Source: an uncultured Candidatus Saccharibacteria bacterium
GTDB taxonomy: Bacteria > Patescibacteriota > Minisyncoccia > Phycocordibacterales > EsbW-18
NCBI GenBank assembly: GCA_964520295.1
Contig: CAZFMQ010000003.1
Location: forward strand, 1,060-65,059
Length of the DNA: 64,000 nucleotides
Reading direction: 5' to 3'
The notes under the pieces were generated by a model that was not told the DNA's origin, did not search any database, and worked only from the letters and a program-made list of their open reading frames with translations. The translations under genes were made by a program, and so were the position numbers. Below, piece after piece: positions 9,229 to 56,703 of the stretch. Numbering within the stretch: the first letter of the stretch is position 1; each line of letters begins with the position of its first letter.

Positions 9229-9888
9229 ATGGCAGCGCCTAAGGCACAAAGTACACAAGCATTTGTTCCTATTAAAGAAATCCGCAGCGGCATCGTCATT
9301 CTCAAAGACGGTTCTATGCGCTCGGTACTCTTGTGCTCCTCACTAAACTTCGCACTCAAATCAGAAGATGAACAGCAGGCAATCATTATGCAGTTCCAAA
9401 ACCTGCTGAACTCGGTGGAATTTCCTATACAAATCATGATTCAGTCGCGCGAGCTGGACATCCGCCCCTACATCGCGCTCCTTGAAGCACAAATAAAAGA
9501 GCAAACCCTTGAACTCATTAAAATACAAACGCGCGAATACATTGAGTTTGTGCGCGGATTTACCGAACAACAGAACATCATGTCTAAGAACTTTTTTGTA
9601 GTAGTACCGTATTCACCCGCGGTTATTTCTGCTGCACAGGGTGGTGTCAAAGGCGCCCTCGGCAACATACTTCCTGGAAAACAAAAAGATAATCCTGAAC
9701 AAAAAATAATTGCATTTGAAGAACACCGCAGCCAGTTAGAACAACGCATCGGCATCGTGTCGCAGAACCTTGCGCGAACCGGTATTCGTGCGGTGCAGTT
9801 GCAAACAGAGGAGTTGGTGGAGTTATACTATAAATTATTCAACCCGGGTGATTCTGAAAAACCAATTGCACTCTCTGCCATCAAATAA
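9229..9888 (+). CDS. VirB4/TrbE-family N-terminal domain fragment; first half of a split VirB4
   Basis: VPIKEIRSGIVILKDGSMRSVLLCSSLNFALKSEDEQQAIIMQFQNLLNSVEFPIQIMIQSR matches the conserved N-terminus of Gram-positive-type VirB4 (TrsE/PrgJ/TcpF). Ends at TAA 9886-9888, 7 nt before the ATG of the next ORF, which is in a different frame. Confidence 0.65.
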   Translation: MAAPKAQSTQAFVPIKEIRSGIVILKDGSMRSVLLCSSLNFALKSEDEQQAIIMQFQNLLNSVEFPIQIMIQSRELDIRPYIALLEAQIKEQTLELIKIQTREYIEFVRGFTEQQNIMSKNFFVVVPYSPAVISAAQGGVKGALGNILPGKQKDNPEQKIIAFEEHRSQLEQRIGIVSQNLARTGIRAVQLQTEELVELYYKLFNPGDSEKPIALSAIK

Positions 9889-9895
9889 CGAACGT

Positions 9896-16350: not shown

Positions 16351-16485
16351 TTACACAGCAAGGCGTGCGCGGCCTTTTGAGCGGCGGCGCTTAATCATCT
16401 TGCGCCCCCCTGCGGTTTTGGTACGAACGAGAAAACCGTGTGTTTTTGCTCGTTTTCGCTTCTTTGGCTGGTTTGTTCGCTTCAT
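16351..16485 (-). CDS. rpmH: 50S ribosomal protein L34
   Basis: Hand translation gives [44 protein letters not shown] (44 aa). Too short for the 60-aa ORF track. Confidence 0.9.
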
Positions 16486-16604
16486 ATAATTTGACTTTTT
16501 TAACGGTTTGTTATGTGTTGTTAGATTGCACCATCCGTTGTCCCCACATTATAAACATAGTTTTCTCCTTTTCTCAAGGTTGTACCTTTTCAAATACGTT
16601 TATA

Positions 16605-18005: not shown

Positions 18006-18229
18006 TAATAAGTATGTGTATAACAGTTGTATAAAAATATAAGTATCTGTGTATGAAATGTATATAAATCAAGATTATAAGAAAAGAATCTAAAAATACA
18101 CAATTTTATATTCTCTTCATACGAATGTTATACACTTCCATCATTCTAAAAAGAGCTTACAGAACACTATAAAATCAACTTATACACTCATCCACTGCAC
18201 TAATAGTAATAATAAATTTATTTATATAT
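18006..18229. promoter_or_regulatory. candidate oriC: DnaA boxes plus an AT-rich unwinding element between dnaA and dnaN
   Basis: Matches to TTATNCACA: TGTGTATAA (18015-18023, reverse orientation, perfect), TGTGTATGA (18048-18056), and TTATACACT at 18128-18136 and 18180-18188. An AT-run, aataataaatttatttatatata, lies just before dnaN. Confidence 0.5.
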
Positions 18230-19330
18230 ATGAAATTCACTGTTCAGAAAGAACAACTACACACTGCAATCAACAGTGTTGAACGAGTTACAGGACGTAA
18301 CCTGTCACTTCCTGTATTACGTTGTGTGCTACTTACTGCGGAAGGGAAGTCAGTAGTGGTTCGTGCAACAAATCTTGATATTGGTATAGAAGTTACTATT
18401 CCGGCAGATGTTGTTGAGTCCGGTGTCGTTGCAGTTCCTGCAGATACTTTTAATCAAATGTTATCCACACTTTCATTTTCAGGACCACTCACCGTTTCGC
18501 AAAATGATTCAAAAATTATTATTACTACACCTAAAAGTGAGACGTCAGTTTCTATATTTTCTTCAGAAGATTTTCCATCACTCCCTAAACTGTCAGATAA
18601 AAAACTATTTTCAATTTCTTCAACAGCACTTTCAGAGAGTTTAAAAAGTGTGTGGTGGAGTGCTTCTATTGGAAGTATTAAACCAGAGTTGAGTTCAGTG
18701 TACCTCTATCATCAAGATGGGTATCTCGTTACTGTTGCAACAGACTCATTTCGACTTGCAGAAAAGAAAGTAAAAATTGGAACATTATATGATTTTGAAA
18801 CATTACTTATTCCCTTAAAAAATGTTTCAGAAATGATACGTCATCTAGATACTTTTAAAGGTGATGTAGAAGTAACTGGAGATGTACACCAAATAGGGTT
18901 TGTAATGGGAAATATATATATTACCTCCCGTGCTGTGGATGGGGTATTTCCTGATTATAAACAAATTATTCCAAAAGAATTTGTGACAACTATTACACTC
19001 TTAAAACAAGATTGTATTGATGCACTAAAACATGTACGAGTATTTTCTGATCAATTTAATAAACTTTCATTTTCAGTAGATAAAAAGAAAAAGCAGTGCA
19101 GTGTAAAAACAGTAAATTCAGAAACAGGAGAGAGTGTTATAGAGTTGGATGCTGCTATAGAAGGAGAAGATATTGAAATGAATTTTAATTACGCCTATAT
19201 TTTGGATGGTGTGCAGACAATTACATCAGATAGTGTTGTTATACAGTGTGCAGGTGTAGGAAAACCAACATGTATTCAACCAATAGGAGATAAATCATTT
19301 TTGTATATTGTGATGCCAATGAATAGATAA
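18230..19330 (+). CDS. dnaN: DNA polymerase III beta sliding clamp
   Basis: MKFTVQKEQLHTAINSVERV..., 366 aa, directly after dnaA. Confidence 0.95.
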   Translation: MKFTVQKEQLHTAINSVERVTGRNLSLPVLRCVLLTAEGKSVVVRATNLDIGIEVTIPADVVESGVVAVPADTFNQMLSTLSFSGPLTVSQNDSKIIITTPKSETSVSIFSSEDFPSLPKLSDKKLFSISSTALSESLKSVWWSASIGSIKPELSSVYLYHQDGYLVTVATDSFRLAEKKVKIGTLYDFETLLIPLKNVSEMIRHLDTFKGDVEVTGDVHQIGFVMGNIYITSRAVDGVFPDYKQIIPKEFVTTITLLKQDCIDALKHVRVFSDQFNKLSFSVDKKKKQCSVKTVNSETGESVIELDAAIEGEDIEMNFNYAYILDGVQTITSDSVVIQCAGVGKPTCIQPIGDKSFLYIVMPMNR

Positions 19331-27810: not shown

Positions 27811-29505
27811 TTAGAGTTCGCTGAGATCAACCACGCGAGAGACCTCTTCAATGGTCGTTTTGCCTTGCAACACTTTTATCACCGCATCTTGTGAGAGAGT
27901 AAGAATACCCTGTGGAAGCGCCGCTTTCTTGATGTCGCGTTCTGACGGTGCTGTTTCTACAACGTGCTCCATTGCAGAGTCCATAATAATGCCTTCGTGA
28001 ATACCAATACGTCCTTTGTAGCCAATATGATTACATGCATCACAACCACCTTCTTTTGCATGCCACACTTTTTCTTTTTGCACATTCGCAATGCTGTTTT
28101 TATCAAACACAGTTTCCAGCACACGTTCAATAATGGTGCGCTCTTCTCCTTCCAGCACCACCTCCTGCTTGCACTCTTGGCAGAGTGTACGTACGAGGCG
28201 TTGTGCGAGCGCCAGTGCGAGCGCAGAGCCGAGAATGCGCGGATTAATGCCGATATCAATGAGGCGCGTAAATGCTCCTGATGCAGAGTTGGTGTGCAGG
28301 GTGGAGAATACCAAGTGTCCTGTGAGTGCGGCGTGCACGGCAATCTCGGCGGTTTCTTTGTCACGAATTTCACCCACCATAATGATGTCAGGGTCTTGAC
28401 GGAGCGATGCGCGCAATCCTGATGCAAACGTATAATTTTTTTCAGAATCCACCTGTGTTTGCACAATACCCTTGAGGTGATATTCAACAGGGTCTTCAAT
28501 GGTGATGATTTTCACATCAGGTGTGTGCACTGATCTCAAGAATGCGTACAGTGTCGTTGTTTTACCCGAACCAGTTGGACCAGTGGTGAGAATCATACCC
28601 GTTGGTTTGCCAATGGCACGTTGCACGACAGTAAAGAGGCCCTCATTCATACCAAGCGATGTGATATCTACCTGGATGGATGCGGGGTTGAGAATACGCA
28701 TTACGATTGATTCACCATAGTTGCCCGGTAGGATAGAGGTACGGATTTCAATATCTGCCTCTTTAAAGTGGATAGAGAAGCGTCCATCCTGTGCTTCATT
28801 GGCAACGTTGAGTTTGAGACCTGAGAGCAGTTTGATGCGCGAGAGCACCAAACGGTACGTATCTGCTTTCAGATGCGCCACATCCTGAAGCACACCGTCT
28901 AAACGCATGCGTACGCGCACATCGGTTTCTTCTGGTTCAATGTGGATGTCGGATGATTTTGTTGCCAGACCACATCCCAACATAACTTCCACAATACGTG
29001 ATGTTTGTCGTGCACGATTCAAAGAAAGTGTATCTTCAATTGCTTTTTGCACATCTTCCAGCGTGCGGACATTTTCTACGAGGGCGGATATGTCCTCGCT
29101 TCCTGCGTCAAGCAAACCTTTTGTGCTACCACTTGTGTATGACAGGTCAGTGTAACGCTCCCACGCAAACTCCAAACTTTTGGTGGATGCAAGGTGCAGT
29201 ATAGGGTCAAATCCAGCCTCACTCATTTTTTTCAATGCTGCGCGTGTCTCATCTCTCTCAGGAGCGTGCACGGCGACAAGTACCTTTTTGTTTTGTCTAC
29301 CGAATGCGGCAAGCTTACCTGCGCGCGCGTCCTCCTCTTTTATGGTGATGAGTGCGTCAGGTGCAATTGCGGTGATAGTGAGATCAACGTAGGGAATGCC
29401 ATACTTGTTGGAAAGCATTTGCATGGACTCCTCCTCTTCTTGTTCACGGAGTTGTTTATATTTTAGGAGCTGTTTTTCCTCGCGCTCTGCATCAAAGTGA
29501 ATCAT
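27811..29505 (-). CDS. pilB: type IV pilus assembly ATPase PilB / GspE family
   Basis: Walker A GPTGSGKTTTLYA, Asp box, His box and a C-terminal Cys cluster. N-terminal GspE_N-like domain. 564 aa. Confidence 0.9.
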   Translation of the reverse strand: MIHFDAEREEKQLLKYKQLREQEEEESMQMLSNKYGIPYVDLTITAIAPDALITIKEEDARAGKLAAFGRQNKKVLVAVHAPERDETRAALKKMSEAGFDPILHLASTKSLEFAWERYTDLSYTSGSTKGLLDAGSEDISALVENVRTLEDVQKAIEDTLSLNRARQTSRIVEVMLGCGLATKSSDIHIEPEETDVRVRMRLDGVLQDVAHLKADTYRLVLSRIKLLSGLKLNVANEAQDGRFSIHFKEADIEIRTSILPGNYGESIVMRILNPASIQVDITSLGMNEGLFTVVQRAIGKPTGMILTTGPTGSGKTTTLYAFLRSVHTPDVKIITIEDPVEYHLKGIVQTQVDSEKNYTFASGLRASLRQDPDIIMVGEIRDKETAEIAVHAALTGHLVFSTLHTNSASGAFTRLIDIGINPRILGSALALALAQRLVRTLCQECKQEVVLEGEERTIIERVLETVFDKNSIANVQKEKVWHAKEGGCDACNHIGYKGRIGIHEGIIMDSAMEHVVETAPSERDIKKAALPQGILTLSQDAVIKVLQGKTTIEEVSRVVDLSEL

Positions 29506-39105: not shown

Positions 39106-40200
39106 ATGAGTTTTGCCTCAAAAGTACTTTCAATTTTCCCTACACTGCCATACTTGCTACTTCCTGCTGCGGGCTTGGATATTTCTGACCAATCGGTGAA
39201 GTGTGTGGAGTTTACAAAATCGCGACAGCGCGGACGACGCGTGAAGCGTTTTGCGTCTATGGCTATTCCGCGTGGTGTGGTGGAGCAGGGGCGCGTGATT
39301 GATAAACAAAAACTGATTGCCATCTTGTCGGAGTTTGCGCGCGTCAATAAAATTCATTATGTGCGCGCATCATTGCCGGAGGAAGCAGGATACATTTTCC
39401 CTGCACACATACCTGAACACCTGACGCACGATGAAACGCGAGAAGCACTCAAGTTTAAAATAGAAGAGAATGTGCCCATCGCACTGTCAGATGCGATTAT
39501 CGATTACGAAGTTGTGCCGGACGTACCAACAGCGGGTGGTCAACGCATGGTGTCAGTATCTGTATATCCAAAAAAAGTTGCCGAGGAGTATGTAGAATTA
39601 CTTTCAGCTGCCGGGTTTGAAGTCTTGTCGCTTGAAATAGAGGCACAGGCCATTGCGCGCGCGGTTGTACCGAAAAAACTGAACGATGTGTCTATGGTCG
39701 TTGATCTGGGGCGCGCTCGATCAGGTATTGCTATTGTGCAGGGTCAAGCAGTGCGCTTTACAGCAACGGTCTCTGTTGGTGGCGATGAAGTCGATGATGT
39801 GTTGATGCGCTCACTCCCCGATGCGTCACACGATGACATTACACACATAAAAAATGAGCAAGGACTGTCGTATGAGGGGGAAGGGTCAGATGCGTTCAAG
39901 ACATTTGCACAGCGACTGAGCAAAGAAGTGGAGCGATACATGGTGTATTGGCAAACACACAAAGAAAAACGAAATACACCGAATGCGCAACAGGCGGTTG
40001 TGCGTATCATTGTGACGGGAGGTAATGCAAACATTGCAGGTCTTCCAGAATATCTTGAACGTACACTCCGCATTCCAGTATTGAAAGGCAACGCATGGGA
40101 AAATGCCTTTTCGCTCGATGCGTATATTCCTGATATAGCAGCACAAGAATCATTGGGATACACACCTGCTATTGGTTTGGCATTACACGAAGATGAATAG
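39106..40200 (+). CDS. pilM: type IV pilus assembly protein PilM (actin-like)
   Basis: N-terminal ...GLDISDQSVKCVEF... ATPase-fold start. 364 aa. Followed by PilN- and PilO-like genes. Confidence 0.75.
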   Translation: MSFASKVLSIFPTLPYLLLPAAGLDISDQSVKCVEFTKSRQRGRRVKRFASMAIPRGVVEQGRVIDKQKLIAILSEFARVNKIHYVRASLPEEAGYIFPAHIPEHLTHDETREALKFKIEENVPIALSDAIIDYEVVPDVPTAGGQRMVSVSVYPKKVAEEYVELLSAAGFEVLSLEIEAQAIARAVVPKKLNDVSMVVDLGRARSGIAIVQGQAVRFTATVSVGGDEVDDVLMRSLPDASHDDITHIKNEQGLSYEGEGSDAFKTFAQRLSKEVERYMVYWQTHKEKRNTPNAQQAVVRIIVTGGNANIAGLPEYLERTLRIPVLKGNAWENAFSLDAYIPDIAAQESLGYTPAIGLALHEDE

Positions 40201-40245
40201 TGCACATAGTGGTGCGCAGTACAGCAGTGCTCTTCACAGTGCGCG

Positions 40246-40950
40246 TTGTTCCCCTTATTTTTTCTGCGCTACAATAGGTGTGTGGTAAATCTGCTTCCTG
40301 TACAAACATATAAGCGCGTGAGGTGGGAGCGCCGTCGTCGTATTACGATTGTAGCGCTGGTGTTTATGTCATGCGCACTTGTGATGGCACTTTTGTTTGC
40401 ACTCCCGTCAATTATTGTGACGTGGTTCGGTGTAAAAGGATTCGATACGCAGTTGGAAACAACAAAAACGTTGGTGGATGTACAGCGCAAACAGGGACGT
40501 GGCGACATGCTCTCCGATTTGTCTGAGCGCGCTGCACTGTTAGAGCAAGCACTCTCAGTACGTACACCCACATCGGTTTTGGAAGACATTGTGCCGCGTA
40601 TTCCTGAGGGCGTACGTATTCGTCAGTTTACCTATACATTGTCAGGTGATGCGGTATCAGTGGCAGTGCTTGGTACTGCAGACACACGTGCATCACTCAT
40701 CGCGTTTGGTAACGCGTTGCGCCAGTCGCCACTTTTCTCGCGGGTAGACGTGCCTGTATCTAGTTTGGCAAAGAGCGAAGACATTGATTTTTCTTTGGCG
40801 CTCGCACTTGCAGCACCTGTGGATGTAACACTACCTCCAGCAACGGCACCTATTGAGGAGGCTACAACAACAGATACAGAAACAGCACCAGAAACAATTT
40901 CAGAAACAGATACACGCGAACCACAGCTATCTGATCCAAACGCTATATGA
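40246..40950 (+). CDS. pilN: PilN-like pilus assembly protein
   Basis: VNLLP motif near the N-terminus, a single TM, then a periplasmic coiled-coil domain. Confidence 0.6.
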   Translation: MFPLFFLRYNRCVVNLLPVQTYKRVRWERRRRITIVALVFMSCALVMALLFALPSIIVTWFGVKGFDTQLETTKTLVDVQRKQGRGDMLSDLSERAALLEQALSVRTPTSVLEDIVPRIPEGVRIRQFTYTLSGDAVSVAVLGTADTRASLIAFGNALRQSPLFSRVDVPVSSLAKSEDIDFSLALALAAPVDVTLPPATAPIEEATTTDTETAPETISETDTREPQLSDPNAI

Positions 40951-41495
40951 GTGCAAAGAAAAAACTAACCATCAGGCATACTGTGCTGTACACCATGATC
41001 GCAATTGTGACAGTACTTGTGGGCGTCTATGTTTTTGTCATGGTGCGTACACAGCGCTCATACGATCACATCATGTTTGTACAAGAAGAATTACTCATAC
41101 AGACACAGCTGGAGCGTCGCGCGCGCGATACATCAGGCACCTTGGCGCAACTTTCAAATAGTCATACGTTTGCGCAACGGTATTTCAGGACACCCGATGA
41201 CGTTATCGCTGTTATTGAAGAGCTGGAGGGTTTTGGAACAGTGATCGGCGCGCCGGTCACAGTGGCACAAGTACAGATACAAAACGAAAACACTGAGACG
41301 CATGAAGGCACACTCATCGTGCATGTTGCGGCATCGGGTACATGGCGTGCAATGTCGCAGTTACTCTCACTGTTGGACACCTTGCCGTACCACGCAACAG
41401 TGATGCAAGCTGGTTTAGAAACGACGCGCGCCAACGACAATGGTGTGCCGATATGGTCTCTGCGCGCAACGCTCGCTATACTTTTGAAACAATAA
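40947..41495 (+). CDS. pilO: PilO-like pilus assembly protein
   Basis: Single N-terminal TM plus periplasmic domain. 4-nt overlap with pilN. Confidence 0.55.
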   Translation: MSAKKKLTIRHTVLYTMIAIVTVLVGVYVFVMVRTQRSYDHIMFVQEELLIQTQLERRARDTSGTLAQLSNSHTFAQRYFRTPDDVIAVIEELEGFGTVIGAPVTVAQVQIQNENTETHEGTLIVHVAASGTWRAMSQLLSLLDTLPYHATVMQAGLETTRANDNGVPIWSLRATLAILLKQ

Positions 41496-46275: not shown

Positions 46276-47193
46276 ATGCACTACAAGCATTTCTCATATA
46301 TTGCACTTGTTGCAATACTCGCAACATCTCTCTTTATCGGCACTACCGCACGCGCAGAGGTGAGCTGTATTTTTGAACGCGATCTCGCACTCGGTGATCA
46401 AGGCGAAGATGTACGTTGTTTGCAAAAATATCTCAACAGCGCTGGCTTTACCGTAGCAGCAAGTGGCCCAGGTGCACCTGGTGGCGAGACCAGTTTGTAT
46501 CGCGAGAAAACAATGGAGGCAGTACAACAGTGGCAGCAAGCAAAGGGTGTAATGCCATCAACGGGCACATGGGGTCCGCTCTCGCGCCTCACATACACCA
46601 AAGCACTTGCAAGTGCATTGAATGCGCAAAAGCCAGTGGTGGTTACACCAACAGTTGCAAGCATCACCGCAGTACCTTCTGTATCGGATGCAGAAAAACG
46701 TGCGCGCGCAGCACTGCTCGCAGCAGTCAGTGCGCTTGAAGATGCACAAGATGAGTACGATGAAGCAGAAGATGATGATGAAGAAACAGGCGATGCAGAC
46801 GAATACATTGAGGATGCACGTAATGACCTCTTTGATGCCATTCGCGCATTCTTGAAGGGTGACTTTGATGAGGCAGATGATTACGCAAGCAGCGCACGCG
46901 ATGCTGCCGACGATGCATCTGATGAAATAGAGGGTGAGTCGCGCAATGATGAAGACCGTGCTGAAGAAGAATTGGATGAAGTAGAAGAAGAACTGGATGA
47001 AGCATGGGATGAAGTAGCAGACGCAGAAGATGATGATGATGAAGATGTTGATGAGGCAGAAGATTTGCTTGATGAGGCAGAAGATCTTTTGGAAGATGCA
47101 GAAGATGCATTTGATGACGAAGATTGGGACGACGTACTTGATTTGGTAGATGAAATTCGTGACCTTATTGATGAAGCACTCGATTCGCTCTAA
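46276..47193 (+). CDS. secreted protein with a peptidoglycan-binding-like domain and an extreme D/E-rich C-terminal tail of about 180 aa
   Basis: Signal peptide ...LFIGTTARAEV. PG_binding_1-like LALGDQGEDVRCLQKYLNSAGFTVAASGPGAPGGETSLYREKTMEAVQQWQ. The tail is almost entirely D/E/A/L with imperfect 21-nt tandem repeats (DEAEDLL units). Confidence 0.6.
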   Translation: MHYKHFSYIALVAILATSLFIGTTARAEVSCIFERDLALGDQGEDVRCLQKYLNSAGFTVAASGPGAPGGETSLYREKTMEAVQQWQQAKGVMPSTGTWGPLSRLTYTKALASALNAQKPVVVTPTVASITAVPSVSDAEKRARAALLAAVSALEDAQDEYDEAEDDDEETGDADEYIEDARNDLFDAIRAFLKGDFDEADDYASSARDAADDASDEIEGESRNDEDRAEEELDEVEEELDEAWDEVADAEDDDDEDVDEAEDLLDEAEDLLEDAEDAFDDEDWDDVLDLVDEIRDLIDEALDSL

Positions 47194-47219
47194 GTTCGCA
47201 CTGCATAATCGCACCGCAC

Positions 47220-47759
47220 ATGCCGCACACTGAATCAGACGAGATTTACATCCGCTTAGAACATTATGACGACATCTTTTCTGATTTTGATATGCGACCG
47301 TACTCCAAACGTTCGCTCTCGGTGGATTTTTTGGAGGAGATAAAGCGCGCAGCAAATGACAAACACACGGGCGCGATTGATTTAGTGTTGTACGTACCTG
47401 AAGGGCAGCGCAATGATACACACGACGAAACTATTAAAGAGCGACTTTCGGTGCACTTCAAGCGACATTTAGAATTACTTAAGAAAGAACGCCGCAGTGT
47501 GTTGATGCTCGGTATTGGTATGGTGCTCGGGGGAGTACTTGCAATGATTGGTGCAACACTCATTGCGTTTCGCGGCCACGATGACAGCGTCACGTTATCG
47601 TTTCTATTGGTGTTTTTGGAACCAGCAGCGTGGTTCTTGTTATGGGAGGGTATGGATCAAATTGTGTTTAATGCAAAGAGTGTGATGCCTGAGCTTGAGT
47701 TCTACCACAAAATGACACACATGCGCGGACATATACATTTCAGGGAATATAAAATCTAA
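47220..47759 (+). CDS. hypothetical membrane protein (cytoplasmic N-domain plus 2 TM)
   Basis: 179 aa. TM segments VLMLGIGMVLGGVLAMIGATLIAF and LSFLLVFLEPAAWFLLW. Confidence 0.45.
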   Translation: MPHTESDEIYIRLEHYDDIFSDFDMRPYSKRSLSVDFLEEIKRAANDKHTGAIDLVLYVPEGQRNDTHDETIKERLSVHFKRHLELLKKERRSVLMLGIGMVLGGVLAMIGATLIAFRGHDDSVTLSFLLVFLEPAAWFLLWEGMDQIVFNAKSVMPELEFYHKMTHMRGHIHFREYKI

Positions 47760-47919
47760 CGTGCACAACACGTAGTGTGCGACGGGGAACGGAAGGCGGG
47801 GAAGAAGAAAACAGAGTGCCTCCATCTGAGCAACTAAGCCACCCAGTCCCTGCCTTGTTCCGCATTTCTGTTCCCTAATAACTGTTCCCCGTTCCATGTC
47901 CTGTTATCCCCACCTTTAT

Positions 47920-47950
47920 TTGACAGGTGAACGAGCGTTCACCTATACTC
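47920..47950 (+). promoter_or_regulatory. sigma-70-type promoter (TTGACA-N18-TATACT) with an embedded LexA/SOS box (GAAC-N4-GTTC)
   Basis: TTGACA at 47920-47925 and TATACT at 47944-47949. A perfect 20-bp palindrome AGGTGAACGAGCGTTCACCT (47925-47944) sits in the spacer. This is the Gram-positive Cheo-box pattern. Confidence 0.65.
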
Positions 47951-47983
47951 AGGTTATTACACAAGGGGTAGTCGCACAATACT

Positions 47984-48178
47984 ATGAATCGCAAACAAGT
48001 AGCAGATCGTATCGAGCAGGAGCTCGAAACCCTCAACTGGGTTATTGATGAAAAAATCATTCACGGCATCTCATACCGCAGTGAATCAAAGCGCCACAAG
48101 GAGCTTCTGCGATGGGCGCGTCGCTTACGCCGCCCCTCATTCTTACGTCGTTTCTCTTCTGCGCTCGCACTCTTTTAA
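47984..48178 (+). CDS. small basic ORF (64 aa) immediately downstream of the LexA-box promoter
   Basis: MNRKQVADRIEQELETLNWVIDEKIIHGISYRSESKRHKELLRWARRLRRPSFLRRFSSALALF. It is the first ORF after the SOS promoter and ends 12 nt before the lexA GTG start. Confidence 0.3.
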   Translation: MNRKQVADRIEQELETLNWVIDEKIIHGISYRSESKRHKELLRWARRLRRPSFLRRFSSALALF

Positions 48179-48189
48179 TACGCACAAAC

Positions 48190-48759
48190 GTGGATTACCT
48201 CAGCACGCTCAATACATTCTACGCCCGCCACAAGCGCATGCCCACGTACGCTGAAATGGCAAAGCTCTTCGGCTTCAAATCAAAAAATGCTGTCGCAAAA
48301 GTAGTAGCGAAGCTTGTAGATGCAGGTGCTATTACCAAAGACCACCTCGGCCGTCTTATACCCAACACCCTTGCCGGTGAAGTGAAGATGCTCGGCTTTG
48401 TTGAAGCCGGTATTCCATCACCCGCCGAGCAATTTGTGTTCGATTCTGTCGCACTTGATGATTGGTTGCTCAATGACCGCGAAGAAACCTACATGCTCAA
48501 GGTAAAGGGGGACTCAATGATAGATGCAGGCATTATGGAAGGCGATTTCGTCATTGTGGAGCGTACCGAACACGCACGCGAGGGCGATATTGTGGTGGCA
48601 GAAGTAGATGGTTCGTGGACGCTCAAATATCTGCGTCGCGATGCGCAGGGAAGAATGTATCTCCAGCCCGGCAACAAGGCATATCACAACATATATCCCG
48701 AAGAAACGATGCGTGTGGGAGCGGTCGTTCGTTCAGTGGTGCGTCGCTACAAACACTAA
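48190..48759 (+). CDS. lexA: LexA repressor (S24 peptidase)
   Basis: wHTH FYARHKRMPTYAEMAKLFGFKSKNAVAKVVAKLVDAGAITKD. Cleavage site VEAG. Catalytic Ser in GDSMIDAGI, and catalytic Lys. A GTG start at 48190 gives a 189-aa protein. The track ATG at 48112 adds 26 aa and overlaps the upstream small ORF. Confidence 0.85.
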   Translation: MDYLSTLNTFYARHKRMPTYAEMAKLFGFKSKNAVAKVVAKLVDAGAITKDHLGRLIPNTLAGEVKMLGFVEAGIPSPAEQFVFDSVALDDWLLNDREETYMLKVKGDSMIDAGIMEGDFVIVERTEHAREGDIVVAEVDGSWTLKYLRRDAQGRMYLQPGNKAYHNIYPEETMRVGAVVRSVVRRYKH

Positions 48760-48785
48760 AACATCTTGTGGTATACTCTACCACT

Positions 48786-49325
48786 ATGGAAACACTTGGA
48801 TTCACACACACACTTATTGTGTGGGGCATACTCGCGATGCAAATCGCATCGCTCGCACTATTACTTGGTATCACCGGTGTCGTGCCCGCATTCAAAAAAA
48901 TAGTTGCACACGTATCTCGTCATGCAATTCTCATTTCATTTTTCGTTGTACTTATCAGCGTACTCGGCAGTTTGTATTATTCCGAGATTGCGGGCTTTGA
49001 GGCATGCACACTGTGCTGGGCACAGCGTTTCTTTGTCTACCCGCAAGTAGTGTTGTTTGCATTGGCACTCTATTGCAAGCGCCGTGATGTGCTCTTGTAC
49101 ACGAATGCACTCTCCATCATTGCATTGGGTGTTGCGGTGTATAACATCTATATCCAAACCGTTGGTGCCAACTCACTCTTTTGTGAGCCGGGGAGTATTG
49201 CTGCATCGTGTTTGGAGAAGTATGTAGAAGGCCTTGGCTATATCACCATTCCGGTGATGTCGGCAACGGCGCTGGTGTTCTTGTTGCTGACCGCGTGGGC
49301 GCACCACAGAACGCATAAAAATTAA
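48786..49325 (+). CDS. disulfide bond formation protein B-like (DsbB/BdbC family)
   Basis: 4-TM protein with CTLCWAQR in the first periplasmic loop and a second Cys pair (CEPGSIAASC). The start is taken at ATG 48786 (METLGF). Confidence 0.65.
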   Translation: METLGFTHTLIVWGILAMQIASLALLLGITGVVPAFKKIVAHVSRHAILISFFVVLISVLGSLYYSEIAGFEACTLCWAQRFFVYPQVVLFALALYCKRRDVLLYTNALSIIALGVAVYNIYIQTVGANSLFCEPGSIAASCLEKYVEGLGYITIPVMSATALVFLLLTAWAHHRTHKN

Positions 49326-49342
49326 AAAATAATTATATCAAT

Positions 49343-49999
49343 ATGAATAAATTTATCTTGGCAGTAGTGGTCGCAATGATACTCGGTGGTTGGTGGTACG
49401 CTTCAAAGAGCGACACACCTGCACCAGAGAACACAACAGAAACCGAAACAACAATGGGTTCAGTCAGCACATTGGAAGATGGTGTATACACACTTAACAC
49501 CACAGAGAGCAATGTTGCATGGACAGGACGCAAGACTCTTATTAAGGATTACTACGATCACGGCACCATCGCATTCAGCAGCGGTTCAGTTGTGGTAACA
49601 GATGGCGCACTTGTTGCAGGTTCGTTTGTGGTAGATATCAATTCAATTGCGGTATCTTCAACAGGAAAGGGTATGGGAACAGATATGCTCACCAATCACC
49701 TTAAGTCAGCTGACTTTTTTGACGCGGCAACGCACCCAACAGCAACCGTCGGACTCGTATCAGTTGATGCAGACGGTACCGTTACTGCAGATGTGACTAT
49801 CAAGGGCATCACACAGCGTGTCACATTTCCTGCAACGATTGCACAAGACGGCACTACTATTACAGGAACAGCAGACCTTACCATTGACCGTACCCTTTGG
49901 GATATTCGCTTTGGCTCGACTAAATTCTTCGGGGATCTCGGCGACAACACTGTTGGCGATGAAGTAGCACTTACGTTGACACTCGTAGCGCAGAAATAA
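49343..49999 (+). CDS. YceI-like domain protein
   Basis: N-terminal TM. C-terminal domain ...VAWTGRKTLIKDYYDHGTIAFSSGSVVV...TFPATI... resembling the YceI lipid or polyisoprenoid-binding fold. Confidence 0.65.
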   Translation: MNKFILAVVVAMILGGWWYASKSDTPAPENTTETETTMGSVSTLEDGVYTLNTTESNVAWTGRKTLIKDYYDHGTIAFSSGSVVVTDGALVAGSFVVDINSIAVSSTGKGMGTDMLTNHLKSADFFDAATHPTATVGLVSVDADGTVTADVTIKGITQRVTFPATIAQDGTTITGTADLTIDRTLWDIRFGSTKFFGDLGDNTVGDEVALTLTLVAQK

Positions 50000-51071: not shown

Positions 51072-51728
51072 GTGCCGAAGAAAGGAGAAGGGGACATGTC
51101 CTCATTCTCGATTGGGCAAATGAATCAACTTGGCGACGCGCTTGAGCGCGCCGGCTTCATGCGGGAGCACATCACGATGCTCGGCCAGAACAAGGACGGT
51201 ATCCTCACCTCGGTCAAGGGACTCCTTGATGGTGTCTACAAGATCAAGACGAGAACGTTTCGCATCTGGAAAACCATTCCGATCGGCATCCACAAAGGTG
51301 CCGAAGGATATCTCAAGGCACTCCGCCGGAACCACAGCATGATCACGTGCACTGCCAGGGACATCTTGGAGAGGAAGCACTTCACGACGGCACCAGCTGT
51401 TGAGAACATCCAGCTCGTGAAAGTCACACCACATCATTTTGGATTTATCACGGAACCTCGCTTTGATGCGTTCTGCAGCCGTGGTCAGGAATTCGGACTT
51501 GAAATCTGCCCCGCAGAGGTCGGTCCGGCACTTGTCCTTGCATACGGCAAGCAGTCGTATAGCGAGCGTATTCAGGTCGCGATGGAGACCATTCCTGATA
51601 AGCAGCTTCTTCCCTCTGTGTGTGTGGTCGATATCGATCTCGGCCGCCGTGGCCTCTCGACCGTATTCTACTACCCTGACTCAAGGGTCGAGATTGATTC
51701 CAAATGGGTCTTTCGGACCCGCCGATAG
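51072..51728 (+). CDS. hypothetical protein in a GC-rich segment flanked by identical 23-nt hairpin repeats
   Basis: 218-aa ORF with GC content clearly above the window average. Bracketed by the identical hairpins at 50943-50965 and 51743-51765. No homology recognised. Confidence 0.4.
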   Translation: MPKKGEGDMSSFSIGQMNQLGDALERAGFMREHITMLGQNKDGILTSVKGLLDGVYKIKTRTFRIWKTIPIGIHKGAEGYLKALRRNHSMITCTARDILERKHFTTAPAVENIQLVKVTPHHFGFITEPRFDAFCSRGQEFGLEICPAEVGPALVLAYGKQSYSERIQVAMETIPDKQLLPSVCVVDIDLGRRGLSTVFYYPDSRVEIDSKWVFRTRR

Positions 51729-51742
51729 CATGAGTAGTAACT

Positions 51743-51765
51743 CGCCCCGACATACTGTCGGGGCG
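51743..51765. repeat. 23-nt hairpin repeat copy 2; also a terminator
   Basis: Identical to 50943-50965. Followed by ttgtcatttctg. Confidence 0.7.
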
Positions 51766-51852
51766 TTGTCATTTCTGAATGTACTTACGTGTTTCCATTT
51801 ATCACACGGTATGTGCTCTACGTCACATGGTACGTGTTACAATGGCTACAGC

Positions 51853-53607
51853 ATGCAATTTGATACCGAACAACTCATTCAATTTCTTGTAGACACAAAA
51901 ATGCTCTCGCTTTCTAAGGCGCAGGAACTGCAAGCATTGGCAGAAGAGCGTGATATGTCGTTTGAAGATATGGTGGTGTCTGAAGGTGCAATGACGGAGG
52001 ATGATATGCGACGCGCAAAAGCGCACGTTATCGGTATTCCATTTGTTGATCTCAAAGAAGAAAAAATTGAATATGATACGCTCGCACTTATTCCTGAGCC
52101 GATTGCGCGCGCCAACAATATTGTGGCGTACCGCAAGGTGAAAAATACACTGGAGGTTGCCATGTTGGATGTGCAGGATTTGCAGGCGATTGATTTCATC
52201 AAAAAGAAGACAGGGCTCACCATTTCACCGCGTCTGACCGATACCAACTCCATCAAGCGCGCGCTCATTCAGTACCAAAAAAGCTTGAAAGCGGAGTTTG
52301 GCGATATCCTGCAAGCAGATGCACTCGCCATCGGCTCGCTTGGAGAAGGGATTACGGACGATGCAAGCGGCGATGTACTCAAGAAAATAGCAGAAGATTT
52401 GCCGGTGGTGCGTATTGTTGAGACACTCGTGCGTCACGCCGTGGTTGGTGGCGCATCTGACATTCACATGGAGCCGATGGAGAAAGAATTGCTCGTGCGC
52501 TACCGCATCGATGGTTTGTTGCGTGATGCCATGACACTGCCAAAAGCCGCCGCCTCGGGCATTGTTGCGCGTATCAAAGTGCTTGCGAATCTCAAGTTGG
52601 ACGAAAAGCGTTTGCCACAAGATGGTCGTTTCAAAATGGATATTGATGGCGAGCGCGTCTCGTTTCGTGTATCCACACTACCAATTTATTTCGGCGAGAA
52701 GGTCGTGATGCGTATTCTCCACGAAGGCGCATCTGGTTTTACACTGGAGACACTCGGTTTTCACGGCGAAGCATTGGAAGCATTGCACTGGGCAACGAAG
52801 CAATCAACCGGCATGATTTTGGCAACAGGTCCAACGGGTTCTGGTAAGACCACGACGCTGTACACGATTTTGGATATCCTCAACACGCCCGACGTCAACA
52901 TTTCAACGATTGAAGACCCGATTGAGTATCAAATGCCTCGTGTCAATCAAACGCAGGTAAAGCCAGAAATAGGCATGACGTTCAGTAACGGACTGCGCGC
53001 ACTGGTGCGTCAGGATCCCGACATCATCATGGTGGGAGAAATTCGTGATGGTGAAACGGTCAATCTTGCTATCAATGCGGCGCTGACAGGACACTTAGTG
53101 CTCTCTACCATTCACACGAACTCTGCCGCAGGTGTCGTTGCGCGTATGCTTGATATGGGTGCGGAGCCATTCCTCATTGCGTCCACTATCAATGTGGTGG
53201 TTGGTCAGCGTTTGGTGCGCACGCTCACACAGCACAAAGAAAAATACACATTGTCTGCCGACGAACTCAAAACATTAGAACAATCTGTTGATTTGGAGCG
53301 TATGCTCGGTTTTCTCAAGCAGGAAGGTGTGGTGGAAAAAGATGCCACATGGAAGGATGTACCGTTCTATCGTCCCAAAAAGGTATCTGGTGATGACACC
53401 GATGGATACAAGGGACGTATTGGTATTCATGAAGTGTTCAAAGTGTCGTCAGCAACACGCGAATTGATTGTGCGCCGTGCGACCTCAGAGGAAATTGAAG
53501 AGCAGGCAAAGAAAGAGGGCATGATGACGATGCTGGAAGACGGTATTTTCAAAGCAGTACAAGGTGTTACCACTATTGAAGAAGTCCTGCGCGTGATTTC
53601 GGAATAA
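51853..53607 (+). CDS. second GspE/PilB-family type II/IV secretion ATPase
   Basis: GSPII_E N-terminal domain. Walker A GPTGSGKTTTLYT. Asp and His boxes. Start at ATG 51853 (MQFDTEQ). The track start at 51439 reads through the hairpin repeat. Confidence 0.9.
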   Translation: MQFDTEQLIQFLVDTKMLSLSKAQELQALAEERDMSFEDMVVSEGAMTEDDMRRAKAHVIGIPFVDLKEEKIEYDTLALIPEPIARANNIVAYRKVKNTLEVAMLDVQDLQAIDFIKKKTGLTISPRLTDTNSIKRALIQYQKSLKAEFGDILQADALAIGSLGEGITDDASGDVLKKIAEDLPVVRIVETLVRHAVVGGASDIHMEPMEKELLVRYRIDGLLRDAMTLPKAAASGIVARIKVLANLKLDEKRLPQDGRFKMDIDGERVSFRVSTLPIYFGEKVVMRILHEGASGFTLETLGFHGEALEALHWATKQSTGMILATGPTGSGKTTTLYTILDILNTPDVNISTIEDPIEYQMPRVNQTQVKPEIGMTFSNGLRALVRQDPDIIMVGEIRDGETVNLAINAALTGHLVLSTIHTNSAAGVVARMLDMGAEPFLIASTINVVVGQRLVRTLTQHKEKYTLSADELKTLEQSVDLERMLGFLKQEGVVEKDATWKDVPFYRPKKVSGDDTDGYKGRIGIHEVFKVSSATRELIVRRATSEEIEEQAKKEGMMTMLEDGIFKAVQGVTTIEEVLRVISE

Positions 53608-53680
53608 CACGAGGCACATACCACGCAACAGTTCACAGTGCACAGGAGAAAATACTACTGAATGTGCGATACTGTAGTAC

Positions 53681-54892
53681 ATGACGCGCTTTAAATACAA
53701 GGCGGTAACCGCGGCAGGCGACGTGTATGAGAAAGTAGGAGAAGCCGAGAGTGCAAAACAGCTTGCGCAAGATTTGTTGTCTCACAATGAGACACTGGTA
53801 TTTGCGCATCCGGTTACCGAAAAACGTTGGTATCAAAAACTCAATGTAGATTTTGGACGCATCAAGGTAACCGACCGTATTACGTTTGCAAAAAACCTTG
53901 CCGCAATGGTAGATGCGGGTCTGACGGTATCGCGCGGTGTCTCTATCATGGAGCATCAGACGGCGAGCAAGAAATTCAAAGACGTATTGGTGCAAATTGG
54001 TGCCGATATTCAAAAAGGCACGCCGTTTTCAATGGCATTGGCAAAATTCCCGCGCGTATTCTCCATGCTTTTTGTAGCGATGGTGCGTGCAGGTGAAGAG
54101 TCAGGGCGTTTAGGCGATGCGTTGCGCACCATCGCCGAGCAGATGGATAGAAGTTTTGCGCTCAAGCGCCGTATTCGCGGCGCACTCATGTATCCGTCAG
54201 TTATTTTGATACTCATGGTTATCATTGGTATTGCCATGATGATGTATGTGGTACCGACACTAACCGCGACGTTTGAAGAAATGGCAATTGATTTGCCTGC
54301 ATCAACGCGACTCATTATCGGGATATCAGAAGGACTTGCGGCACACCCTATTCTGTATATCGGTGGCATGCTTGGCGCAGTCGCACTCATTATTGCGGGT
54401 TTGCGTACGCGCGTGGGCAAGCGCGGGTTTGAGTGGTTTGTCATGCATACGCCGGTTATTCAAACAATTTCACAAGAAGCGAACTCAGCGCAGATGTCAC
54501 GCACGCTTGCATCACTCCTTTCATCGGGCGTGGATGTGGTGTCAGCGCTCTCCATTACGCGCGATGTGTTACAGAATTCATTTTACAAAGAAGTACTTGA
54601 TGAGGCGGGGGAGTACATTCAAAAAGGTTCGCAGATTTCTGATGTGTTCCGCAAACATCAAAAGATTTATCCGCCGATGGTGACGGAAATGGTGTCGGTG
54701 GGAGAAGAGACAGGAAAAATGCCTGACATGTTTATGCAGATAGCAACCTTCTTTGAAGGGGAAGTAGACCAGAAAACGAAGGATCTCTCAACGATTATTG
54801 AGCCGATACTCATGGTGGTGATTGGTGCGGCGGTCGGATTCTTCGCCGTATCAATGATTACACCGATTTATTCACTTTCATCGGGTATTTAG
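53681..54892 (+). CDS. pilC: type IV pilus inner-membrane platform protein PilC / GspF family
   Basis: Two GspF repeats. 403 aa. Directly after the ATPase. Confidence 0.9.
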   Translation: MTRFKYKAVTAAGDVYEKVGEAESAKQLAQDLLSHNETLVFAHPVTEKRWYQKLNVDFGRIKVTDRITFAKNLAAMVDAGLTVSRGVSIMEHQTASKKFKDVLVQIGADIQKGTPFSMALAKFPRVFSMLFVAMVRAGEESGRLGDALRTIAEQMDRSFALKRRIRGALMYPSVILILMVIIGIAMMMYVVPTLTATFEEMAIDLPASTRLIIGISEGLAAHPILYIGGMLGAVALIIAGLRTRVGKRGFEWFVMHTPVIQTISQEANSAQMSRTLASLLSSGVDVVSALSITRDVLQNSFYKEVLDEAGEYIQKGSQISDVFRKHQKIYPPMVTEMVSVGEETGKMPDMFMQIATFFEGEVDQKTKDLSTIIEPILMVVIGAAVGFFAVSMITPIYSLSSGI

Positions 54893-54897
54893 AAAAT

Positions 54898-56703
54898 GTG
54901 CGTATGTGCACTAAGTACACACAAAAGAACAGAGGTTTTACGCTCGCTGAAGTGGTTATTGCATCGGCGGTGTTCCTCATTATTGCAGTTGGTATTTACC
55001 AAGTGTATACATCACTCTTCCGCACTATTACCGCATCGCGCACCGTACTGCTGGCCTCAGCATTGGCGACAGAACAGTTTGAAATTGCGCGCAACATGCC
55101 ATACGACGATGTCGGTGTTGTCGGTAGTATTCCAAATGGTTTGATTCCAAACGCGCAAACACTGACGCGAGATGGCGTAGTATTCAATGCAACGACGACT
55201 ATTCGTAATGTGGACGATCCATTTGACGGTACCATTGGGGGATCGCCAAATGATACGTCGCCTGCTGATTATAAGTTGATGCAGATAGAGATTGATTGTA
55301 CGACATGTCGCACCTTTACACCTCTCACATTCACGACACGTGTGGCACCGAAGAATCTAGAATTTTCATCAGGCAACGGCGCACTCTTCGTGCGTGTGTT
55401 TGATGCCAATGGCCTGCCGGTGCAGGATGCAGATGTGCACGTAGAGTACACAGCAACAACATCGCCTGTGGTTATCAATGATGTGACCGATCAAAATGGG
55501 TTACTGCAACTTATTGATATTCCACCAGCAGAAACGGCGTACAGTGTTTCTGTAAGCAAATCTGGATATTCATCAGATCAAACGTATGCATACGGAAGTA
55601 TCGGTAGCTCTACGCCGTCGCTCCCGCACGCCACCGTATTGGCGGGCCAGGTTACGCAACTATCATTTACTATTGATGTATTGAGTTCATTGACGATTAC
55701 GAGCGTCACGAATACCTGTGAGCCCGTCGGTTCTGTTTCATTTGATCTTGAGGGAGCAAAGCTTATTGCCACCACGCCGGACGTGCGCAAATACGATCAA
55801 TCATTTTCTACAGACGCGAGCGGTAATCGTACCATCAATAATCTTGAGTGGGACACGTATGCGCTCGATATCACCGATGGTGCGTACGATTTGGCGGGAT
55901 TGATTCCACTGTTGCCACCAACACTAGCACCGGACTCGCACATGGATCTCTCGCTTGTGGTAACACCTTCAAACCCCGATGCGTTGTTGGTAACCGTCAA
56001 AGATGCGGCAACACAATTACCAATATCAGATGCCATCGTTACACTTGATGACGACGAAGAGCAGACAACAGGGCGTGGCTTTTTGACACAGACGGATTGG
56101 TCGGGGGGGTCTGGGCAAGAACTATACGAAGACGAAACAGAATATTGGGAAAGCGAAGATATAGAAACGAATGATCCCGATGGCGTGCTTACGTTGAATG
56201 CACTGGTGGGTTCCTATGATGCAGATGGCTGGTTGATTTCATCAATTTTTGATACTGGTTCTGCAAGTAATTTTTATCGCATTATGTGGCAACCGACCGA
56301 TCAGCCAACAAGCGTTGGTACAGATAGCGTGCGCTTTCAAATTGCCACAAATGATGAGTTGAATGCATCAACAACATGGTCGTATGTTGGTCCTGATAAC
56401 ACATCAGGAAGCTATTTTACAGTTGCAAATCAAAATATCGGTATTGAGCATACAGGGAAGCGCTACTTCCGCTATAAGATATTCTTGCGCACGGATGACA
56501 CTGATTTTACGCCAACGGTTTCAGATATTTCATTTGTATTTACATCAGCGTGCGTACCACCAGGGCAAGTGGTGTTTGGCAATGTCGGCAACGGTGCGCA
56601 CACGGTTGCTGTAGAACGTGATGGCTATCAGCCGTATGAGAGTTCACCATTTGCACTAACGGGATACTTTACGTCACATGAAGTATTATTGAATCCAGAA
56701 TAG
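54898..56703 (+). CDS. large (601 aa) prepilin-type protein with CarboxypepD_reg-like beta domains; candidate minor or tip pilin
   Basis: Class III signal ...KNRGFTLAEVVIASAVFLIIAVG (G|FTLxE). Beta-sandwich-like segments such as ALFVRVFDANGLPVQDADVHVEY. Confidence 0.6.
   Translation: MRMCTKYTQKNRGFTLAEVVIASAVFLIIAVGIYQVYTSLFRTITASRTVLLASALATEQFEIARNMPYDDVGVVGSIPNGLIPNAQTLTRDGVVFNATTTIRNVDDPFDGTIGGSPNDTSPADYKLMQIEIDCTTCRTFTPLTFTTRVAPKNLEFSSGNGALFVRVFDANGLPVQDADVHVEYTATTSPVVINDVTDQNGLLQLIDIPPAETAYSVSVSKSGYSSDQTYAYGSIGSSTPSLPHATVLAGQVTQLSFTIDVLSSLTITSVTNTCEPVGSVSFDLEGAKLIATTPDVRKYDQSFSTDASGNRTINNLEWDTYALDITDGAYDLAGLIPLLPPTLAPDSHMDLSLVVTPSNPDALLVTVKDAATQLPISDAIVTLDDDEEQTTGRGFLTQTDWSGGSGQELYEDETEYWESEDIETNDPDGVLTLNALVGSYDADGWLISSIFDTGSASNFYRIMWQPTDQPTSVGTDSVRFQIATNDELNASTTWSYVGPDNTSGSYFTVANQNIGIEHTGKRYFRYKIFLRTDDTDFTPTVSDISFVFTSACVPPGQVVFGNVGNGAHTVAVERDGYQPYESSPFALTGYFTSHEVLLNPE

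Follow-up and report, generated by a model that had tools for sequence, protein, structure and literature searches.

What is a gene for a small basic protein doing at the head of a lexA operon, and to which signals does the promoter in front of both genes respond? These questions are raised by a 64,000-nucleotide (nt) stretch of contig CAZFMQ010000003.1 (hereafter the window, meaning this whole stretch), in which a 64-codon open reading frame (ORF) precedes the gene for the SOS repressor LexA and both lie downstream of a promoter that contains a predicted LexA operator. The first-pass annotation of the window had proposed a small ORF-lexA operon controlled by a Cheo-type SOS box, with the ORF as a candidate SOS cell-division inhibitor. 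Our analysis leads us to read the locus as an operon that is autoregulated by LexA and probably modulated by DnaA, and whose first gene would encode a soluble effector of the SOS or replication-stress response, a reading that we hold, on sequence evidence, with a probability of roughly 0.45.

Results

A predicted LexA operator fills the promoter spacer

A consensus scan of positions 47000-49500 ranked one promoter-like site first: TTGACA-18-TATACT, which matches 11 of the 12 consensus positions (Table 1). The region between the two hexamers reads GGTGAACGAGCGTTCACC, and the spacer is filled by a perfect inverted repeat with arms of 9 nt and a centre of 2 nt (AGGTGAACGAGCGTTCACCT, that is AGGTGAACG-AG-CGTTCACCT), which takes in the final base of the -35 hexamer as well as the initial base of the -10 hexamer and encloses the core GAAC-N4-GTTC at 47929-47940. 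The location of the operator inside the promoter, as first annotated, is thus confirmed. Taken by itself, the 12-nt core is at chance level in 64 kb: its single occurrence compares with 1.16 expected, and at least one match was present in 66 of 100 shuffled sequences. The significance of the operator therefore derives from its position and conservation and not from the count of the 12-mer, and it was the conservation and position across orthologous loci that proved decisive in rejecting a chance palindrome. No second operator was found between genes of the window at up to three mismatches, as had also been noted at first pass; the matches within this limit (12625, 32001 and 32723) all lie within ORFs, and none was found upstream of polA, recJ, dnaA or dnaN. 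Genes for recA, uvrA, dinB and ftsZ were not found among the window ORFs scanned, and the same applies to ftsA.

The closest named relatives are Candidatus Campbellbacteria and 'Pacebacteria' (Patescibacteria/Parcubacteria group). Upstream alignment of six related loci revealed conservation only in GTGAACG-NN-CGTTCACCTATACT, in the -35 and in one further block that is treated below: the operator is invariant in orthologs, its flanks and two central bases vary, TTGAC(a/g) is kept directly before it, and the sequence that adjoins it downstream is an invariant (c/t)TATA(c/a)T. Across 49 Patescibacteria loci (243 kb), 44 contain exactly one GTGAAC-N4-GTTCAC site (at most one mismatch), always at the lexA-operon promoter, where by our own estimate about 0.5 would be expected by chance in total; four of the remaining five carry the variant (T/C)AGAAC-N4-GTTCTA. 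The refuting condition named at first pass, a lack of the box or of the small ORF at orthologous lexA loci, is therefore decided in favour of that annotation, the small ORF too being widespread at such loci (see below). The fractions given here for genome collections and metagenomes come from samples of the matches listed, and the loci compared are phylogenetically related, which means that the counts overstate independence. A metagenome scan that is independent of the genome set, using the operator plus the start of the -10 as its pattern, gave among 120 loci listed at least 94 lexA operons, 10 loci too short to classify and 16 others. On one metagenomic contig (L130) the same operator and -10 design drives a Y-family DNA polymerase with a canonical QLDLF clamp motif, on another (L152) the gene driven by the operator encodes the small subunit of a prophage terminase, and on two more (L102, L151) it drives N6 DNA methylases. 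Y-family polymerases and prophage terminases are typical SOS targets, and the polymerase promoter lends indirect support to the wider Gram-positive-type regulon that was supposed at first pass.

Among the matches listed, the nearest LexA relatives outside Parcubacteria show lineage-specific flanks on the same core: the lexA promoters of Syntrophales carry TAGAAC-N4-GTTCTA, those of Betaproteobacteria, which like Syntrophales encode a short LexA, carry the CGAACG-N2-CGTTCG type (many with two boxes 31 nt apart), and several Peribacteria loci display operator variants of the GTG(G/C)AC type. In the window itself, the spacer 5' of the promoter (47782-47900) contains TGTTCC three times (47856, 47869 and 47883, at a spacing of 13-14 nt) together with an extra GTTCC nearby, and also a 9-nt perfect inverted match of ACGGGGAAC (47782-47790) with GTTCCCCGT (47884-47892). 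GTTC is the LexA half-site. The TGTTCC cluster is absent from the six related loci aligned upstream and may represent extra weak half-sites, RNA structure or chance.

The repressor encoded by the second gene

The GTG at 48190 is the first start codon past the stop of the small ORF and opens a different frame; since the LexA proteins of orthologs align from residue 1 of this reading, the start chosen for lexA in the first-pass annotation can be retained. The protein contains a Peptidase_S24 domain (PF00717; E=2.9e-26 and 91.9 bits, where the cut-off is 23.3), its winged helix-turn-helix region at the N-terminus gives a weak match to LexA_DNA_bind (PF01726; 18.2 bits against 23.7), and the lexA model TIGR00498 is matched over its full length at 108.9 bits against a cut-off of 110.95. 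As the S24 domain is accompanied by a cleavage site (Ala73-Gly74, within VEAGIP), and a catalytic dyad of serine (Ser109, within GDSM) and lysine (Lys146, within TLKYL), all of them invariant in six orthologs, this LexA should by analogy self-cleave in the normal RecA-dependent way.

LexA autoregulation via a box of the GAAC-N4-GTTC type is textbook knowledge, and the Cheo-type SOS box known from Bacillus subtilis and other Firmicutes and Actinobacteria has the consensus CGAAC-N4-GTTCG. The present locus resembles such Cheo-box lexA loci in having a palindromic GAAC-N4-GTTC core over the lexA promoter and an S24-type LexA with its Ala-Gly, Ser and Lys residues; it differs in its flanks, which read GTGAAC...GTTCAC in the window and in the 44 related loci, in an operator that exactly fills the spacer between -35 and -10, in the second place of lexA within its operon and in a short LexA (189 amino acids) that falls just under the curated model cut-offs. 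The designation of the box as Cheo-type is therefore apt for its Gram-positive-type core and does not extend to the flanks; the core SOS regulon of Gram-positive bacteria has been summarised elsewhere (PMC7739468). That the small gene and lexA form an operon under LexA autoregulation is, from the promoter architecture and its conservation, very probable.

The first gene and its predicted product

The small ORF is intact, and its conservation and its place upstream of lexA agree with its earlier assignment as the first gene of the operon. A word-indexed search returned six homologs, each of 64 amino acids (92-56% identity), and an exhaustive profile search gave 282 or more clusters when grouped at 50% identity; of the 150 clusters listed, nearly all consist of standalone proteins of ~50-100 amino acids. 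In three longer members that were inspected (101-147 amino acids) the operator lies inside the called gene, which marks these three as over-extended gene calls. The ratio of non-synonymous to synonymous substitution rates (dN/dS) lies at 0.05-0.10, the synonymous sites being close to saturated, and across 30 members, which share 28-80% identity with the window protein, seven residues are invariant (M1, N18, I21, D22, G28, Y31 and H38) and five nearly so (E13, K24, I25, E34 and K39). The AlphaFold2 model comprises two helices, 3-27 and 32-49, with a predicted local distance difference test score (pLDDT) of ~90, and a tail (53-64) of low confidence (pLDDT <50) that is taken to be disordered. Given the low dN/dS, the 282 clusters and the confident hairpin model, the sequence record identifies the small ORF as a real, conserved and previously unannotated gene.

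Past the hairpin, a basic run leads into a tail that varies around the pattern (S/G)-Φ-Φ-x-(R/K)...Φ-x-S-x-F-Φ-F (e.g. RPSFLRRFSSALALF and SGWFSKSFSLVSTFIF), and this basic-aromatic, hydrophobic character is conserved as a type family-wide: from its composition, the tail resembles a short linear motif for docking or a helix at the membrane interface. A clamp-binding tail was also considered, as the window protein ends in ...SALALF, which loosely resembles QLxLF; because the tail consensus of the family is unlike this motif and the polymerase of contig L130 carries the canonical QLDLF, the idea was judged unsupported. Mimicry of the C-terminal peptide of FtsZ was a further, conjectural idea, in that the tail segment PSFLRR can be likened to P-x-F-L-R-K, a motif of FtsZ tails.

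Database comparison placed the protein in no described family: scans of Pfam, NCBIfam and PHROG with single sequences and with all 30 members gave nothing consistent, neither of two profiles matched a PDB sequence at E≤10, and Foldseek retrieved from the PDB only generic hairpins (E≥3.9). The sole repeated Pfam signal was to HisKA, the phospho-acceptor hairpin of histidine kinases, with weak sub-threshold matches in 3 of the 30 members (best E=0.0035); the invariant His38 of the family lies on helix 2, and the signal is probably generic hairpin similarity. An origin from phages was rejected, with no tblastn match in 50,697 phage records.

The window protein has a net charge of +7 (+5 to +12 across 33 members) and its maximum 19-residue Kyte-Doolittle mean is 0.06 (at most 1.42 in the 33 members), so that hydropathy analysis detects no transmembrane-grade segment in any of these. 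This bears directly on the most familiar role for such a gene, that of a classical membrane-anchored division inhibitor related in type to YneA, SosA, ChiZ and DivS or to SidA, which acts on the divisome from its periplasmic or extracytoplasmic side. Time and again, a small gene that adjoins lexA and is under LexA control has been found to encode a division inhibitor, and it was a synteny heuristic of this kind that led to SosA (PMC6851548); like these proteins, the present one is small, LexA-controlled (here inferred from the operator) and linked to lexA, and it would accumulate only during LexA cleavage. However, published Gram-positive SOS inhibitors are encoded divergently from lexA and have one transmembrane segment and often a LysM domain (PMC6851548), whereas the gene described here is co-directional and lies ahead of lexA within the operon, and its strongly basic product contains neither LysM nor any other Pfam domain and is modelled as a soluble helical hairpin followed by an aromatic tail. 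The view that the ORF has the usual form of an SOS division inhibitor must thus be given up, and a classical membrane-anchored inhibitor has become highly improbable.

Linkage of the small gene to lexA

In every instance examined, which comprised 9 close loci, 27 genomes, 5 members chosen for their distance and 63 operons from metagenomes, the small gene lies upstream of lexA on the same strand, while the flanking genes differ. Of 40 Patescibacteria genomes at species level that were searched with a hidden Markov model, 27 have the gene immediately upstream of lexA, and it is present in 66 of the 94 metagenomic operons listed; in some loci it is separated from lexA by 65-214 nt or by another gene. 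In a tree of LexA proteins, loci with the small ORF form coherent clades, with one Kaiser/Adlerbacteria-type clade lacking it and one nested loss (L030); in loci without the small ORF, the operator stands 35-68 nt before lexA. The small gene is, by its phylogenetic pattern, an ancient accessory of the operon that has been vertically inherited with lexA, and LexA, by the same kind of evidence, does not require it.

The two genes are tightly joined: of 33 orthologous loci, 21 have a gap from stop to start of between -8 and +6 nt, including TAATG and ATGA overlaps, and in the closest relatives (L001/L008, 3190-3200) the stop of the small gene overlaps the lexA start as TAATG. In the window TAATA replaces TAATG, lexA begins at the GTG 11 nt downstream and LexA is two residues shorter, which from the alignment looks like a recent start-codon shift. 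As this GTG so closely follows the stop codon and no obvious Shine-Dalgarno sequence precedes it, reinitiation is the likely route to LexA translation, and the junction is likely, from its sequence, a site of termination-reinitiation (translational coupling).

The weak lexA start of the window and the stop/start overlaps common in orthologs would also suit a small ORF that is a translated leader only, delivering ribosomes to lexA through a functionless peptide. Against this stand the strong purifying selection on its amino acids at saturated synonymous sites, the invariant and near-invariant residues kept by members of widely differing identity, the confident fold and those loci in which the gene persists at a distance from lexA. 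Because of the selection data we regard a leader-only role as excluded for practical purposes, with a residual chance slighter still than that of the membrane-anchored inhibitor.

Gene content around the pair was also noted at individual loci. In L092 (2501-5402) the small gene and lexA are followed by a gene for a 148-amino-acid protein of unknown function, a Y-family polymerase (IMS + DUF4113) and a uracil-DNA glycosylase, in L090 (2501-5344) the order is small gene, a 100-amino-acid unknown, lexA and a RNase_T/UvrC_M/Cho_C nuclease, and in L095 a gene for ~100 amino acids directly follows the small gene; these unknowns of 100-150 amino acids may be further SOS components. At 46276-47193, as the second gene ahead of the small ORF, the window carries a gene for a PG_binding_1 protein whose C-terminal half is extremely acidic, Asp/Glu-rich low complexity (e.g. 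DEAEDDDEETGDADE), and a PG_binding_1 gene stands directly upstream of the small gene in L001-L003.

A putative DnaA box upstream of the -35

The further block that is conserved upstream of the -35 in orthologs reads TTAT(C/A/G)CACA and matches the DnaA-box consensus, TTATNCACA. Its counterpart in the window, TTATCCCCA, ends 7 nt upstream of the -35 and is centred at about -48 from the inferred transcription start, giving an overall layout of DnaA box, 7 nt, -35, LexA operator, -10, ~34 nt, small gene and lexA. The exact TTATNCACA occurs 14-40 nt upstream of the operator in 26 of the 44 loci, 22 of these at -22 to -25, and at up to one mismatch to TTATCCACA the count in the same interval rises to 37 of 44, against ~0.003 expected per locus; elsewhere in the same 243 kb the box is not enriched (12 observed, 7.4 expected). 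At the same tolerance, 65 of 93 non-redundant metagenomic lexA promoters contain the box, distributed as 59 of 65 promoters with the small gene versus 6 of 28 promoters of lexA only. The one-mismatch variant of the window recurs in L011, L034 and L051, and neither the small ORF nor the TTATCCACA element was found in L048-L089 (loci of Syntrophales, Betaproteobacteria and Peribacteria). On metagenomic contig L151 the full module of TTATCCACA, TTGACG and operator stands not before lexA but before a pair of type I-like genes for a methylase and a specificity subunit.

The window includes the chromosomal origin region, with dnaA (16440-18005), a spacer (18006-18229) and dnaN (18230-19330). Six box-like 9-mers (at most one mismatch) fall within 18001-18500, the densest bin in the window, and five of them lie in the AT-rich dnaA-dnaN spacer (TTATACACA, TCATACACA, TTATATACA and, twice, TTATACACT); the cumulative GC skew reaches its minimum near 16 kb, and the GC content is 0.33-0.36 across 16-20 kb as against 0.45-0.51 in the rest of the window. 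Based on the presence of dnaA and dnaN, the cluster in the spacer and the nearby skew minimum, the source organism uses canonical DnaA boxes. The lexA operon lies ~30 kb from the origin and is co-oriented with dnaA.

The element could, on the other hand, be bound by another factor, possibly by the small protein, which is basic, or be a promoter element peculiar to the lineage: its co-occurrence with the small gene and the strongly basic nature of the latter's product are consistent with this. What makes such an interpretation unlikely is that the element equals the DnaA-box consensus, with the tolerated variants TTATACACA and TTATGCACA differing at the N position of that consensus, that the dnaA-dnaN origin spacer of the same genome is packed with 9-mers of the same type, and that the box is also found in lexA promoters lacking the small gene (L022, L028, L030 and L046); moreover, TTATCCACA has 3 exact copies in the 64-kb window where 3.3 are expected, and so is no general promoter feature. 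We therefore lean towards DnaA input to the lexA-operon promoter, judged from the box and its placement. Our literature search found no paper in which DnaA boxes are connected with lexA promoters. In E. coli, uvrB and recN are under joint control of DnaA and LexA (Wurihan et al. 2018, as cited in PMC8203912); the likeness lies in a DnaA box and a LexA box on one SOS promoter (here predicted), and the difference in that the dual-site promoter described here belongs to lexA itself and has been conserved throughout a large radiation.

Table 1. Features of the lexA operon and its promoter in the window (positions count from the first base of the window).
Feature	Position	Strand	Basis
DnaA-box-like 9-mer TTATCCCCA (candidate)	47904..47912	+	one mismatch to the TTATNCACA consensus
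-35 hexamer TTGACA	47920..47925	+	consensus scan, 11/12 matches, spacer 18 nt
LexA operator (predicted) AGGTGAACG-AG-CGTTCACCT	47925..47944	.	perfect 9-2-9 inverted repeat, ortholog conservation
-10 hexamer TATACT	47944..47949	+	consensus scan
Gene for 64-amino-acid basic protein, modelled as two-helix hairpin (ATG 47984, TAA ending 48178)	47984..48178	+	homologs, dN/dS, model
Small gene/lexA junction	48176..48192	+	TAA 48176-48178, 11 nt, GTG 48190
lexA, 189-amino-acid autocleaving repressor (predicted)	48190..48759	+	S24 domain, ortholog alignment

Discussion

For the small protein, a soluble effector is suggested because small LexA-linked genes have repeatedly turned out to encode such effectors, because DnaA input to the promoter makes most sense for an effector of the cell cycle and because the aromatic and basic tail suggests docking on the membrane or on a partner. 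More specifically, a checkpoint effector that delays division or replication is a tentative but reasonable proposal, to which we give somewhat less than even odds.

The lexA-sulA operon of Pseudomonas, in which a soluble division inhibitor is co-transcribed with lexA, shows that a place on the lexA transcript is compatible with an inhibitor role; in that operon lexA comes first, and SulA is a protein of ~160 amino acids from a defined Pfam family. Here the gene order is reversed and the Pfam scans gave no SulA match for the small protein. A second point of comparison is Sda of Bacillus subtilis, a helical hairpin of 46 amino acids that is activated by DnaA on replication stress and blocks a cell-fate decision, so that a small hairpin checkpoint gene under DnaA activation has precedent (PMC8203912). 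Sda and the small protein share a two-helix hairpin (here modelled), a flexible C-terminal tail and a promoter with DnaA boxes (here candidate), which makes Sda a conceptual fit as a replication checkpoint; unlike Sda, the small protein is encoded in the lexA operon behind a promoter that is predicted to be LexA-repressed as well, and no sequence or structure in the PDB, Sda included, was matched.

The strongest competing explanation is that the small protein modulates the SOS switch itself, either by binding LexA as a co-repressor or cleavage inhibitor, or by binding RecA filaments or single-stranded DNA as DinI and RecX do, so that its coupling to LexA provides feedback on induction. Precedents exist for the 1:1 binding of LexA-type repressors by small helical proteins (PMC4551915; PMC7273328): gp7 of phage GIL01 binds LexA 1:1, strengthens its binding to DNA and blocks RecA-stimulated cleavage (PMC4551915), and DdrR of Acinetobacter is a co-repressor with UmuDAb (PMC7273328). 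These too are proteins of ~50-80 amino acids encoded beside a gene for a LexA-type repressor, and the known ones act by protein contact. The co-directional adjacency to lexA, with start/stop overlap at most of the orthologous loci compared, and the vertical co-evolution with LexA would be in keeping with such a partner, and the net positive charge of the family suits DNA or acidic partners. In contrast to the small protein, gp7 is not basic, and a relationship between the two was rejected: they share no sequence or profile similarity (hhalign probability 0.3%), and the small protein has no phage homologs. Furthermore, the clade that lacks the gene keeps the same LexA length, operator and promoter design, indicating that LexA does not need the small protein, a hydrophobic aromatic C-terminal tail is unexpected for a DNA-bound co-repressor, and an effector of the cell cycle would more readily explain why DnaA input goes together with the small gene. 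We thus consider a modulator of the SOS switch unlikely, although clearly less so than a membrane-anchored inhibitor or a leader peptide, and prefer the soluble effector of the SOS or replication-stress response.

Several observations nevertheless weigh against this preference. The small protein lacks the transmembrane segment of every characterised SOS division inhibitor from Gram-positive bacteria and Caulobacter, it matches no known inhibitor family, and its fold, as modelled, is a generic hairpin without an informative structural neighbour. Tight coupling to lexA is also what would be expected of a LexA-binding partner, and one clade of Patescibacteria manages without the gene. On the side of the promoter, the correlation between the box and the small gene is confounded by shared ancestry, and the box of the window has its mismatch at a consensus position and may be weak. 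The window finally holds no other SOS gene.

For the soluble effector, the following sequence of events can be proposed. With undamaged DNA, a LexA dimer on the spacer operator would occlude RNA polymerase, as is established in LexA biology. Damage would give rise to RecA filaments on single-stranded DNA, LexA would self-cleave at Ala73-Gly74 and both genes would be derepressed; for as long as the damage persists, newly made LexA would be destroyed and the small protein would accumulate, its level reporting 'SOS on', and after repair LexA, whose translation would be coupled to termination on the small ORF, would be rebuilt quickly from the abundant transcript and would shut off both genes. DnaA bound near -48 would tune the promoter to the replication status of the cell. 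The conserved hairpin would bind a conserved cytoplasmic target and the basic-aromatic tail would dock on the membrane or on a partner, with a delay of division or replication as the result. Taken to its furthest extent, the locus would be a self-contained, phylum-specific checkpoint cassette of the Parcubacteria group, in which a promoter reading damage and replication status is combined with a hairpin that arrests division or replication and is co-translated with the repressor by which it is later switched off, a functional analogue of SulA or Sda without homology to either; this we offer as speculation.

As regards the surroundings of the operon, the lexA stop is directly followed by a small palindrome (48768-48788, GTGGTAtactcTACCAC) containing TGgTATACT, an extended -10-like element (48769-48777) whose end is only 8 nt away from the ATG (48786) with which a DsbB-like gene begins, and its position suggests that this gene has a promoter of its own and an mRNA almost without a leader; no intrinsic terminator was found after lexA on the + strand. 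The window is also rich in genes resembling those for type IV pili and type II secretion (9770-11845, 27811-29505, 39106-41495 and 51439-56703), which include two PilB-like ATPases, PilC, PilM, PilN and a pilin-like protein that has a methylation motif at its N-terminus as well as a TraG-like P-loop ATPase, and no LexA operator was found in the window at the pilus/secretion-type genes or at the TraG-like ATPase.

The SOS network of Patescibacteria has reportedly been analysed before, by Sánchez-Osuna et al. in 2017; a paper citing that study lists it among direct-repeat LexA motifs, while the box described here is palindromic. What appears to be undescribed is a large family of small proteins that has no database family and is found only heading the lexA operon, the stop codon of its gene frequently abutting or overlapping the lexA start, and a putative consensus DnaA box whose distance from the LexA operator is fixed throughout a radiation.

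Patescibacteria have minimal genomes and reduced divisomes and for the most part cannot be grown in culture. In such cells, a protein of 64 amino acids that is tied, as predicted here, to sensors of both damage and replication is a candidate for coupling genome integrity to the cell cycle, and its promoter would represent a compact natural design with two inputs.

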